From NCBI GenBank assembly GCA_965116925.1, contig OZ220744.1, positions 5,216,001 through 5,280,000 of the forward strand: DNA of 64,000 nt. The letters are read 5' to 3'. A model generated the notes under the pieces. That model saw only the letters and a program-made list of their open reading frames with translations. It had not been told where the DNA came from and did no database searches. Origin of the DNA: Candidatus Poribacteria bacterium. Lineage in GTDB: Bacteria; Poribacteria; WGA-4E; PCPOR2b. Positions 55,313 through 58,501 of this stretch are shown here, piece by piece; position 1 is the stretch's first letter, and every line of letters begins with the position of its first letter. A program made the translations under genes and the position numbers.

Positions 55313-58300
55313 ATGTCACACAACATCACTACATTTTGGCACAAGGAATCCTTTGAGGAATTGATGAAAGAACGGCTGCCAGAGCTTCTTGCTGACCGGG
55401 TGCCGCTCGCCGGTTATCATTTTGATTCAACCGGAGGATACACCTGCCGTGTCAGAATCGTGCTGGCATCAACTGAGGGCTATGTTGAGGTTGAATACAT
55501 GGACATTCCGCAGCCTGATGGAAACGGTATGTTCACTCTCGACGGTGAACCTTATGTTGTCGTGCCGCTCGCTTCAACCGTGGAACTGGAACAAGCGAAA
55601 ATTGAGTGTATGGGTGATCAACTGTACGACTACTTCAAGGCGCGTATCAGGGAAGCACCGCCGGATATAGAATGGGATACGTCGCTTGTCCGCTCATGGC
55701 TTCCGATTGATAGATGGGTGCGTGAATTCTTTAGTGATACATTCACCGCTCAGGAACTGTCCCATACTAACTGGCTCGACAAACATACACATCTACGTCG
55801 GGTACGGATTTCGCAGGGGAATCAGGTGTTTAGCCCCGGACACTTTGGACGGACTTGTCCATTTGAAACGCCAGAGGGACCAAATGTTGGCAAGATTCTG
55901 ACGATTGCGAGGGGTGCGGAGATTCGCGATGGAAAATTGGTCATCATGGATGAAAGTCCTGAAGCAACACTTGGTCTGTCCGCCGCACTGATCCCTTTTC
56001 TCGAACACAATGATCCGCCGCGAATACTCATGGGTGCGAACATGATGCGCCAATGGTTGTCTCCTTCTGCTCCAGAAACCGCACCGATTAGCTGTCCCAA
56101 CGGAGTGTCAAGAGTGGCTGCTTCTCCGGAACCTGCGCTTGTCCAGACAGGGTACGAGCCTGATGCTCCCGACTTTTGGTGTGGGCGTAATCTGTTGACC
56201 GCTTTTATCTCTTGGGGCGGGGATACCTTTGAGGACGGCATCGCGATTAGTGAATCGTGTGCTGCGCGTCTAAATTTTCCTTACGCTATTGAACCGGGCG
56301 ATAAAATTAGTAACCGTCACGGAACGAAAGGGGTCATTTCGCGCATCTTACCTGACGATGAGATGCCCCATCTTGCCGATGGCACACCGGTAGAACTCGT
56401 TTTCAGTTTTGGTGCTTTGCATGGACGGATGAACTTTGGTCAAATCCGAGAAGCCGTCATGGGCCGCATTGCGCGGGCGGAAGGAGAAACCGCTATTGTG
56501 CCGCCATTTCAAGCCCCCAATGCCGATCAACTCCGTGAGCGACTCCAAAAGGTAGGCCTGCCTGAAGATGGGATGGAAACCCTCACGTCTGGACCTAACG
56601 GTAAGAAACTGGATCGACCGAGTACGGTTGGTTGGGTCTATTGGGGAAAGACGGTTCACATCGCGCTGGATAAGCTCAAGGCCTCCGAACCCATCGTTCA
56701 CGAGGCACCTATATACCATCAGGGGCTTGGCGAACTTGAATACTATACACTACGCAACATTTCAGCATTTGAGACATTGCGAGAACATTTCAACACCCGT
56801 GCTTCAACGCGAGTAGATGCGGAGACACTTCCCGATCGCGTTACGGGGGGGACAGTTGAGCAGGCGGGACCACCGACGCCGATGTTTGCCAATCTCAAGG
56901 AGCGACTGTCGGCGGGGGGCATCCACGCTAACTTTGATGGTGACAAACTGACCTTCCAATTTGCGAGTCCAATTGGGAATACACTCCAGCTTGCCCAGCC
57001 GGTTCCCCATCCGTGGCTACATGCTCAAGCTATTGATGAAGTTGGTATATGTGAAGACATTTCTGAGTATCGTGCACTTGCCGATGTCAATGCTAGAGCA
57101 GAGCGAATGTTTGCAAATGATGCGCCGGAAAGCCTAACCCTCCAAACCCTCAAACAACTCCAAACACGTCTTGCAGAATATTTCGACGCACTTCTAAGTC
57201 CCGCAGATATGCGCTTTACGGCACGGACGCTTTTCAGCGGGCGCAGCGTCATCGTACCAGATGCGGAGTTACGTGCTGATCAGGTTGGCATCCCTGAGCA
57301 GATGGCGTGGGCACTTTTCGGGCTGCAGGTTGCAAGAGAGCTTGGTGATACCAAAGAGGTACAGGGAAAAAGCCAGAGGGCGACGCATCTCCTTGATGAA
57401 TTGATGGCGCGTTCATGGGTAATTGTACATCGAGCACCTGCGTTTACGCCTACCTCCTTTGTTGCATTCCATCCAGTGCGGCAGCCAGACCGTGCCATTC
57501 GTGTTCCTCCCTTTGTTTGTGAATTAATGAACGCTGATTTTGATGGCGACCAAGCGGCGATTTTTCTGCCCATCACAGCGGAGGGTCAACGGGAAGCCGG
57601 TGAGCAGCTGTCTATCGCTGGGCATCTCAAACGAGATCCGAATATATGTGCAGCCTTAGCCCCGGGACATGATGCGATATGGGGGTTGGCAAGTTTAAGT
57701 CTCACACCCGAAGGGCGTGATGAACTCTCAGAAATTGTCGGGATGGAGATTGTTATTCCTGAAGGTTTGGTCACGCGGCACTCGTTAGCGGATACGCTGA
57801 AAACACTCCTCAAACGCGAAGGGATTGATCGCACCATTGAAGTCGCTGAACGTCTGATGCAGCGTGGACTCGAAATTGTAAAGGAATCGGGAGCATCTAT
57901 GAGTCCGTTCCTCAGTAGAGGCGATGGTAGTCCGCCCGTTCCTACAGATCCCGATGATGCAGCAGCGTGGAATGCTTACGCGGAAGAACTTATGGAATGG
58001 ATTGCCGCTTACGAAAACTTTGCTGATAACAACTTGGGACCACACATCCTCGCAGTCAAAAGCCGCGCCTTTACAAGCAGACTTTATCGACTCGCGTGTG
58101 TTGTCGGGGCACGAGGGACAGTTTCAGATATTCGAGATTTCGTTTGGACAATCAGGATGGTGGCAAGCCGAGGATTTGCACAAGGGACAGTTTCAGGCAT
58201 TGGAGACGGGGATATCGTGATTCGTAACGGGTATTGCGATGGTTTAACATCTGATGAACTTTATGCGCTCTGTGTCGGATCACGGGAAGGGCTTGTTCGA

Positions 58301-58501
58301 TTCAACTCCGAACTACAACGCGTTGCATGGGAACTACGCGACAGCAGCCAATCAAAAGGATTTACTGTGCTGTCTCGTGCGATGCGAGCCAAGCAGCCCG
58401 GTATCGTTTTCGCACGCGCCGCAGCGTGCGGTGAAGTTGATCCGCTTACAGATATTGACAGCCGGCTTTTCGTCGGGCTGCCCGTCACAACGTCCGAGTG
58501 A
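55313..58501 (+). CDS. Miniature single-chain RNA polymerase-like protein: fused, heavily reduced beta (RpoB) + beta-prime (RpoC)
   Basis: Beta motifs [53 protein letters not shown] and GELE, then beta-prime motifs SGRSVI, HRAP and NADFDGD, all in colinear order in one ORF; AGGAGG RBS. Confidence 0.92.
   Translation: [1062 protein letters not shown]

Follow-up and report, generated by a model that had tools for sequence, protein, structure and literature searches.

The 64,000-nucleotide (nt) stretch of Candidatus Poribacteria DNA analyzed here (contig OZ220744.1 of assembly GCA_965116925.1, positions 5,216,001 to 5,280,000 of the forward strand; hereafter the window) carries two adjoining genes on its plus strand. 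The first one (54498..55112, +) encodes a sigma factor of the extracytoplasmic function (ECF) type with a length of 204 amino acids (aa), assigned via Pfam and NCBIfam. The second one (55313..58501, +) spans 1062 codons plus a stop codon and encodes a single-chain fusion of the β and β′ subunits of RNA polymerase (RNAP), assigned via Pfam and an AlphaFold2 model, which we refer to as mini-RNAP. Its open reading frame (ORF) is intact, and the β part is followed by the β′ part on the same chain. In multisubunit enzymes the trigger loop normally speeds up and proofreads RNA synthesis. A preliminary description of the final 97 codons of this ORF (58208-58498, +; aa 966-1062) suggested that the enzyme lacks this element; this reading was correct, it extends to 72 of 72 full-length family members, and we are nearly certain that the trigger loop is truly absent from the mini-RNAP.

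The mini-RNAP is a pared-down two-barrel RNAP of the bacterial lineage. Pfam recognizes the domains Rpb2_3 (aa 149-204), Rpb2_6 (best stretch 326-457, E 4.5e-41) and Rpb1_2 (aa 691-764, E 2.5e-18), and no further domain at E ≤ 1. The NCBIfam scores stay far below the respective cut-offs for rpoB (TIGR02013, 184.9 vs. 801.15 bits) and rpoC (TIGR02386, 82.2 vs. 963.5 bits) as well as for both long-fusion equivalogs (177.4 vs. 4632 for NF011417; 154.9 vs. 5372 for NF007172). An AlphaFold2 model of the whole protein was built on an alignment of 72 full-length family members, window protein included (alignment A1, the source of all counts out of 72), and reached a mean predicted local distance difference test (pLDDT) value of 93.8 and a predicted template modelling score of 0.92. 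This model was compared with about 48,000 representative chains, an output that consists of the first and last aligned residues only. Residues 1..543 align with bacterial β 18..1269 (Z 30.0, root-mean-square deviation (rmsd) 2.9, 520 residues aligned) and residues 543..1062 with Mycobacterium tuberculosis β′ 7..1265 (Z 17.4, rmsd 3.3), which pairs 489 of the approximately 520 mini β′ residues with canonical β′. Identity in these structural alignments amounts to 30-31% for bacterial β (Z 27-30) and 25% for β′ (Z 17.4). The features that define the two-barrel RNAP superfamily are all found in the chain, namely a β′ barrel with DxDGD, a β barrel with basic residues and, in the predicted model, a bridge helix. 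A Foldseek search and a pdb_via search with the full model were both filled by β chains and did not inform on the β′ half. A model of the β′ half alone was less confident (pLDDT 80.2, with 44-70 at the C-terminus), and its alignments, computed with VIA-align, stop at E. coli β′ 780-792, mostly 787-788, inside the bridge helix; the full model was therefore used instead.

The β half still covers β from end to end with its lobes cut down, and the β′ half presents, in this order, clamp-core strands, clamp helices, the NADFDGD barrel, funnel helices, F-loop, bridge helix and a C-terminal block. Within the catalytic-barrel segment of β, which holds the GDK..NRHGxKG motif (aa 325-346; 56286..56351, +), G329, D330, R335 and G337 are invariant, while K331 is kept in 66/72 and K339 in 68/72 members. 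The catalytic Asp triad of the metal-binding motif NADFDGDQ (aa 740-747; 57530..57553, +) is similarly retained, with D742 in 69, D744 in 70 and D746 in 69 of the 72 members. Because this triad, the GDK/RHG/KG residues and the C-terminal block described below are conserved, and because the family is large (569 cluster representatives at E ≤ 1e-30 among 1.84 billion), the mini-RNAP is, as judged from its sequence, likely to be a catalytically active polymerase. The genome carries a single copy of it in addition to normal rpoB and rpoC genes, and the mini-RNAP is an accessory enzyme.

The canonical β′ subunit of the same genome (RpoC, 1439 aa) served as reference for the region in question. An hhalign comparison of the family profile with this protein pairs aa 580-1000 with residues 284-812 over 396 columns (probability 99.9, E 6e-33), a span that reaches from the clamp helices via the NADFDGD barrel, funnel region and F-loop to halfway along the bridge helix. 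This bears out the earlier alignment of the first peptide of the region with the F-loop and the start of the bridge helix; both that peptide and the C-terminal one are indeed present at the place described. The F-loop (aa 966-979) and a full-length bridge helix (aa 980-1012) together occupy 58208..58348 (+), as assigned by the model and hhalign, and the bridge helix is predicted as one helix of 33 residues with pLDDT above 90. The N-terminal half of this stretch is conserved, with G977 of the F-loop invariant and E982, R991 and L994 common, and the C-terminal half of the bridge helix (aa 998-1013) is variable among members. In canonical enzymes it is this C-terminal half that packs against the folded trigger helices.

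What follows the bridge helix is a linker of six residues (aa 1013-1018; 58349..58366, +), defined by the spacing in the family alignment. It stands for about 520 residues of the canonical β′ of the same genome, in which residue 801 is the first of the bridge-helix core, residue 956 is the last of the trigger-loop motif IGEPGTQLTMRTFH, and the start of the C-terminal block lies at about 1355; the replaced part comprises the jaw as well as the trigger loop with its insertion. The remaining 44 residues of the mini-RNAP (aa 1019-1062; 58367..58498, +) form a C-terminal block, the predicted counterpart of the last conserved block of β′. This is the best-conserved stretch of the C-terminal region: 14 residues are kept in at least 90% of the 72 members (R1022, A1023, P1029, G1030, V1032, A1034, A1036, A1037, E1041, D1043, L1045, R1051, L1052, and G1055). 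Such strong conservation indicates that the shortened end is under selection and does not represent a remnant. In the model, three short helices (1019-1025, 1029-1039, and 1048-1054) lead from the bridge helix to the chain end.

The preliminary description had also aligned this block with the extreme C-terminus of β′, and here structure and sequence contribute unequally. On the structural side the placement holds, as the alignment with M. tuberculosis β′ runs to residue 1265, and further alignments of the full model reach the C-terminal regions of Drosophila Pol II Rpb1 (1463) and of human and fission yeast Pol I (1713 and 1677); model residues 810..1062 moreover align with cyanobacterial RpoC2 7..1234. 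Archaeal A′, a subunit that naturally ends just past the bridge helix, is aligned only as far as model residue 1018, and the 44 residues occupy the place of the whole archaeal A″ subunit. On the sequence side the match is weak: the last 62 residues find their best local counterpart in β′ 1355-1393 of the same genome, the SAASFQ...ENVIMG block, at E 0.04-0.07. Altogether, the identity of the block with the extreme β′ C-terminus is supported by good evidence from the predicted model, which holds at the level of alignment end-points and not of single residues.

The absence of the trigger loop itself was evident from the spacing, from profile and domain searches and from the model. The distance from G977 of the F-loop to R1022 of the C-terminal block measures 41-59 aa (median 45) in 72/72 members. 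A trigger-loop profile built from 38 canonical β′ sequences matched 5/5 canonical controls (E 1e-26 to 1e-29) and 0/72 family members at E < 1 (best E 1.6), and a regular expression for the trigger-loop tip likewise matched 0/72 members. The same profile, run over all six frames of the window, gave a best E of 0.32. The trigger loop is held by Pfam domain Rpb1_5 (PF04998, Rpb1 domain 5), which was not detected in the mini-RNAP at E ≤ 1 and occurs in none of the 120 homologues listed. A canonical RpoC presents two trigger helices with a GEPGTQLTMRTFH-type tip between bridge helix and C-terminal block; the mini-RNAP does not, and the full model shows no helical hairpin after the bridge helix. 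The earlier statement that no trigger-loop motif is present is thus confirmed, with neither the profile nor the structural alignment placing a trigger-helix hairpin anywhere in the mini-RNAP and with the chain end falling at the β′ C-terminus. The chain has lost the jaw and the trigger loop together with its insertion domain, and the lack of a trigger loop, with the bridge helix joined almost directly to the C-terminal block, is common to the whole family.

Three points speak against so simple an account. The last 62 residues can also be placed at β′ 841-876, past the bridge helix, with E 0.07; a short remnant resembling a trigger helix may persist among the helices of residues 1019-1039; and every structural statement depends on a predicted model, the surroundings of the site for the nucleoside triphosphate (NTP) lying beyond what end-point alignment output can convey.

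The missing element could, in principle, be an artefact, the result of truncation or a frameshift in a pseudogene or of an assembly error. In favor of this, short open frames were found at the match in three genomes of a phylum sample, G090 (114 aa, TGA), G061 (159 aa), and G093 (495 aa). A replacement at any given catalytic Asp is seen in 2-3 of the 72 members, and three members carry one at some position; the short frames together with these replacements suggest occasional gene decay and also count against the main reading. In the window, by contrast, the frame is intact and the model is confident to the chain end; a convergent ORF (58657-59418, -) begins about 150 nt downstream of the gene; and the 72 full-length relatives, which stem from many assemblies, all end at the conserved RLFVGL motif. 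An artefact is already contradicted by the family alignment, and we regard its probability as negligible. Among the relatives with a replaced Asp, the protein P0032 (69% identical) reads NANFDGD, its first catalytic Asp being exchanged for Asn.

A second possibility is that the trigger loop has been replaced by a functional substitute. Such an element might act in cis, the candidates being the F-loop, the bridge helix in its variable C-terminal half, and the helices of residues 1019-1039, which might serve as what is left of the first trigger helix. It might also act in trans, through the conserved acidic linker of the sigma factor or another factor that enters via a wide-open secondary channel. 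R1022 and its neighbors in the C-terminal block are nearly invariant, and in the sigma family the linker contains an invariant D119 and a conserved W-x-x-D motif, both of which would suit such a role. There is also a precedent in the virus-like element (VLE) of yeast, whose RNAP obtains its C-terminal β′ regions from a separate small subunit (PMC6211774). Against a substitute, the segment between the F-loop glycine and the C-terminal block never exceeds 59 residues, and the structural alignments lead the chain end to the β′ C-terminus rather than to the trigger helices. A search with the trigger-loop profile over 124,502 open frames of the genome (at least 30 aa) retrieved the canonical rpoC only (next E 0.83), a PF04998 search of the genome returned rpoC alone, and the flanks of 20 loci hold no third gene conserved beside sigma factor and polymerase. 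No substitute element was found within the chain either, since nearly all mini β′ residues have canonical counterparts. The one extra segment is an insertion of 23 aa directly before the F-loop (DFVWTIR...SGIG, aa 942-964; 58136..58204, +), which is missing from 71/71 other sequences of the family alignment, two of which carry shorter, unrelated insertions at this position. It is modelled with pLDDT below 50 (aa 943-963), and an unbroken match across it in the phylum sample was obtained for the same genome and the congener G085 only. Because it is restricted to a small clade, it cannot be a family-wide substitute of the trigger loop. Taken together, we consider a substitute of either kind improbable, and absence without replacement is the reading that we follow. 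The insertion is possibly also present in the near-identical metagenome proteins P0002, P0003, and P0008, to judge by their length of 1061 aa alone, as compared with 1039 aa in the majority.

The reduction of the mini-RNAP is not confined to the trigger loop. In the β half, only 22 residues separate the FED (aa 306-308) and GDK (aa 329-331) motifs (56229-56305, +). In a phmmer comparison with the β subunit of C. thermocellum (8i23_C), aa 278-316 correspond to β 757-795 and aa 325-530 to β 932-1148, and about 136 residues of β between these motifs, a segment that in canonical β is the flap, are left without a counterpart. In the β′ half, hhalign places a gap of about 22 residues after the clamp helices, where canonical β′ carries the rudder. 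Flap, rudder and most of the lobe material are lost from the mini-RNAP. The coiled-coil clamp helices themselves are retained (aa 584-627; 57062..57193, +); the model predicts them as two helices (584-601 and 606-627), and hhalign aligns them to β′ 284-330 of the same genome. In canonical β′ the clamp helices are the docking site of sigma region 2. The docking site of sigma region 4 is the flap (see also PMC7824862).

The gene upstream of the mini-RNAP encodes a candidate for such docking. Its product matches Pfam Sigma70_r2 (PF04542, E 7e-17) and the region 4 models r4 and r4_2 (PF04545 and PF08281, E 3e-11 and 5e-11), scores 114.8 bits in TIGR02937 against a cut-off of 42.9, and consists of regions 2 and 4 only, as is characteristic of ECF (group 4) sigma factors. 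In 20/20 loci that include the polymerase 5′ end, the gene directly upstream, in the same orientation, is a sigma orthologue, and these loci belong to Poribacteria, Planctomycetota, Chloroflexota, Latescibacterota, Myxococcales, and others, at least six phyla altogether. The space between sigma stop and polymerase start measures 200 nt in the window (55113-55312), and about 10-20 nt, or an overlap, in other phyla; an Rfam scan of 54000-59000 returned one sub-threshold match (17.4 bits against a gathering score of 45) and none within 55113-55312.

At 45 nt upstream of the sigma start codon we noted a promoter-like motif, TGAAC-N14-CGGTGTC (54452..54477, +), with the -35/-10 layout of ECF-type promoters. 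Of 21 loci, the window and 20 further ones, 20 carry the motif TGAAC-N14-YGGTGTC or a near variant directly in front of the sigma gene, generally in the form GAAC-N13-16-GGTSTC and with CGGTC in one locus; the single locus without it (L014) offers only 67 nt of upstream DNA. Within the 6.47-Mb genome the exact motif occurs at four sites, compared with one for the reversed control. The other three exact sites lie inside or antisense to ORFs, and no further regulon target was found in this genome. As far as sequence can tell, the motif looks like an autoregulated ECF promoter.

The strict linkage of the two genes, the retained clamp helices and the shared promoter-like motif are the reasons to believe that the enzyme uses the neighboring sigma factor, and a functional partnership of the two appears somewhat more probable than its absence. 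Several observations temper this view. The flap is missing, yet the sigma factor keeps region 4 and the motif keeps a -35-like element; the sigma factor may accordingly work with the canonical core, the mini-RNAP being merely its regulated product. A prediction of the complex of sigma factor (alignment A3) and β′ half (alignment A2), run without controls, scored 0.26 against a mark of 0.32, and we give it no weight either way. A further alternative would make the mini-RNAP a catalytically irrelevant decoy or regulator of the sigma factor, produced by the normal RNAP with the adjacent sigma factor, which it would then titrate via the clamp helices as negative feedback. That the only intergenic exact motif facing a gene start in the genome precedes the operon of the module itself would fit such a loop, as would the loss of the flap, which normally holds region 4, and the few members without one catalytic Asp. 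Nevertheless, a decoy needs neither the Asp triad nor the β Lys, Arg and His residues, the F-loop glycine or the C-terminal block, all of which are kept across phyla in 66-72 of the 72 members, and we consider a decoy very improbable.

If the enzyme is active, it is still conceivable that it is no processive DNA-dependent transcriptase, but makes short RNAs or primers, copies RNA or single-stranded templates in the manner of QDE-1, or uses deoxynucleoside triphosphates. The chain has no trigger loop, flap, rudder or lid-type elements, and thereby lacks the parts that separate RNA from template and form the RNA exit channel. Furthermore, N740 (57530-57532) is kept in only 44/72 members and is otherwise replaced by D (18), E (4), Q (3), or G (2), which also sits uneasily with the idea of an ordinary transcriptase. 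The equivalent Asn contacts the NTP sugar in canonical enzymes, and the sugar selectivity of the mini-RNAP may be relaxed. QDE-1 (Z 12.5) and the single-chain RNAPs of phages (Z about 10) are, in addition, detectable structural relatives. The mini-RNAP is, however, far closer to bacterial β and β′ than to any of these, and the clamp helices, the obligatory sigma partner and the promoter-like motif suggest that it initiates at promoters, on double-stranded DNA. A lack of the trigger loop need not limit processivity either: YonO of the Bacillus subtilis SPbeta prophage, which has no detectable trigger-loop homology, is described as more processive than multisubunit RNAP and as equally efficient in phosphodiester bond formation (PMC5467207). 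We therefore regard the non-transcriptase alternatives as unlikely. The preliminary description had considered, as alternatives, a slow or low-fidelity enzyme, one with a substitute element, or one that is non-processive or makes short products; given that YonO is efficient and processive without a detectable trigger loop, slow or non-processive synthesis is not a necessary consequence of the loss, and by analogy we expect that the mini-RNAP need not be slow or confined to short products. It is, on the same analogy, probably a competent polymerase.

Considering all these points, the likely best explanation is a sigma-linked single-chain polymerase that works without a trigger loop. Catalysis would rely on the two barrels together with F-loop and bridge helix, which alone would position the NTP and two metal ions. 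The YonO report also describes that enzyme as more error-prone, as binding incorrect NTPs better and as devoid of transcript hydrolysis or RNA cleavage (PMC5467207). By analogy, the mini-RNAP would be less accurate, would not cleave transcripts for proofreading, either by itself or with the help of a factor, and would show little or no pausing that depends on a trigger loop. The ECF sigma factor encoded upstream would most likely dock on the retained clamp helices, and the pair would act as a small accessory system for transcription alongside the normal RNAP, with the TGAAC-N14-YGGTGTC motif driving at least its own operon. We speculate, with more doubt than confidence, that the two genes could amount to a complete second transcription machine that lacks alpha, omega, flap and trigger loop and starts at TGAAC-N14-YGGTGTC promoters independently of the host core. 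If true, this would be the smallest sigma-dependent RNAP known and a natural orthogonal transcription system, and it might stay active under inhibition of the canonical RNAP by, for instance, phage proteins or antibiotics that target flap, jaw or trigger loop.

Comparison with known systems helps to define what is new in this enzyme. Like canonical RpoB and RpoC, to which it is clearly homologous, the mini-RNAP has two double-psi β-barrels that bear the catalytic motifs, and it also has clamp helices, a funnel, an F-loop, a bridge helix and a C-terminal block; it differs in being one chain of 1062 aa instead of two chains that total about 2800 aa, in lacking trigger loop, jaw, flap and rudder, and in its much reduced lobes. 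YonO is also a single chain with both barrels and without a detectable trigger loop, a likeness in how the two enzymes work, which does not show common descent. It is phage-borne and only very distantly homologous to multisubunit RNAPs, whereas the mini-RNAP is chromosomal, is recognized by Pfam Rpb1 and Rpb2 domains and adjoins a dedicated sigma gene; the two are set apart here without a direct sequence comparison.

The yeast VLE RNAP (K2ORF6p/K2ORF7p of pGKL2) resembles the mini-RNAP as a fusion of about 980 aa of a β-like and a partial β′ moiety with shortened spacing of the conserved regions, and its Orf6 is reported to have no detectable homology to trigger, rudder or lid (PMC2919709; PMC6211774). 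This enzyme is nevertheless eukaryotic and plasmid-borne, is considered a relative of poxviral or nuclear RNAPs and has no sigma factor, while the mini-RNAP is bacterial and carries the C-terminal block in the same chain. Full-length β::β′ fusions, those of the Helicobacter/Wolbachia type and others of 1,900-2,900 aa, likewise present β and then β′ in one frame, but PF04998 is found in nearly all of the 84 listed, and their identity to the mini-RNAP is about 30%. Many other uncharacterized β::β′ fusions of approximately 1,300-2,900 aa occur in metagenomes (P0271-P0354 and, as leads, Atlas clusters), most of them with Rpb1_5 and some with added PF01551, PF14528, or PF14890; these could represent intermediate forms. 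Finally, the enzymes of phage P23-45 (gp96, gp62/64) and of the crAss-like phage phi14:2 (gp66) as well as fungal QDE-1 share the minimal two-barrel layout with a bridge helix. They belong to phages or eukaryotes, none is sigma-dependent, and they are far more distant from the mini-RNAP than bacterial β and β′ are, the structural relatives among QDE-1 and the phage single-chain RNAPs reaching Z 12.5, about 10, and 7.5.

To our knowledge, enzymes without a trigger loop are either very distant relatives, such as YonO, QDE-1 and the phage enzymes, or belong to eukaryotic plasmids, and for all cellular-type RNAPs the trigger loop is regarded as indispensable to catalysis and fidelity. What is new here is the combination: a recent-looking reduction of bacterial β/β′ that is chromosomal, occurs in several phyla, lacks trigger loop and flap, and comes with its own sigma factor and motif. 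A close β/β′ derivative devoid of trigger loop, flap, rudder and jaw has been maintained by strong selection in bacteria of at least six phyla, and provides a natural experiment on what the trigger loop and the flap are needed for and on how small a sigma-dependent polymerase can be. With about 120 kDa and a 23-kDa sigma partner, it is also small enough for biochemistry, structure determination and use in orthogonal expression. Full-text literature searches found no paper on the mini-RNAP family, and an earlier mention by Iyer and Aravind (2012) is possible.

Where the sources of the relatives name them, they are labelled as hypothetical protein, and their titles refer to Candidatus Poribacteria (the closest, with up to 89% identity), Planctomycetota, Chloroflexota, Latescibacterota, Hydrogenedentota, and Myxococcales. 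The distribution is patchy: in the phylum sample, a match was present in 24 of 121 genomes, with 15 of 18 in family f1, 8 of 9 in family f2, and 0 of 82 in family f3. Searches of 50,697 phage and 72,556 plasmid records gave no full-length relative, a coverage of at least 80% being required of the phage records. The PADLOC defense models gave 0 families for the polymerase and one marginal match for the sigma factor (E 9e-4). As there is no PADLOC match of the polymerase and no phage or plasmid relative, and as only the sigma factor is conserved as a neighbor, an origin from a mobile element or a defense system is not supported. Among the PHROGs, matches were obtained for phrog_24349 and phrog_25354 (about 1,200 positions, no stated function) and for two families named RNA polymerase beta subunit.

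Further downstream in the window, two ORFs of about 400 aa each (59895-61091 and 61081-62298, both -) are visibly similar in sequence, with the shared motif VVDAYSTTLPHLLPLL / VIDSYATVLPHLLPLL, and they look like a tandem duplication of a membrane protein.

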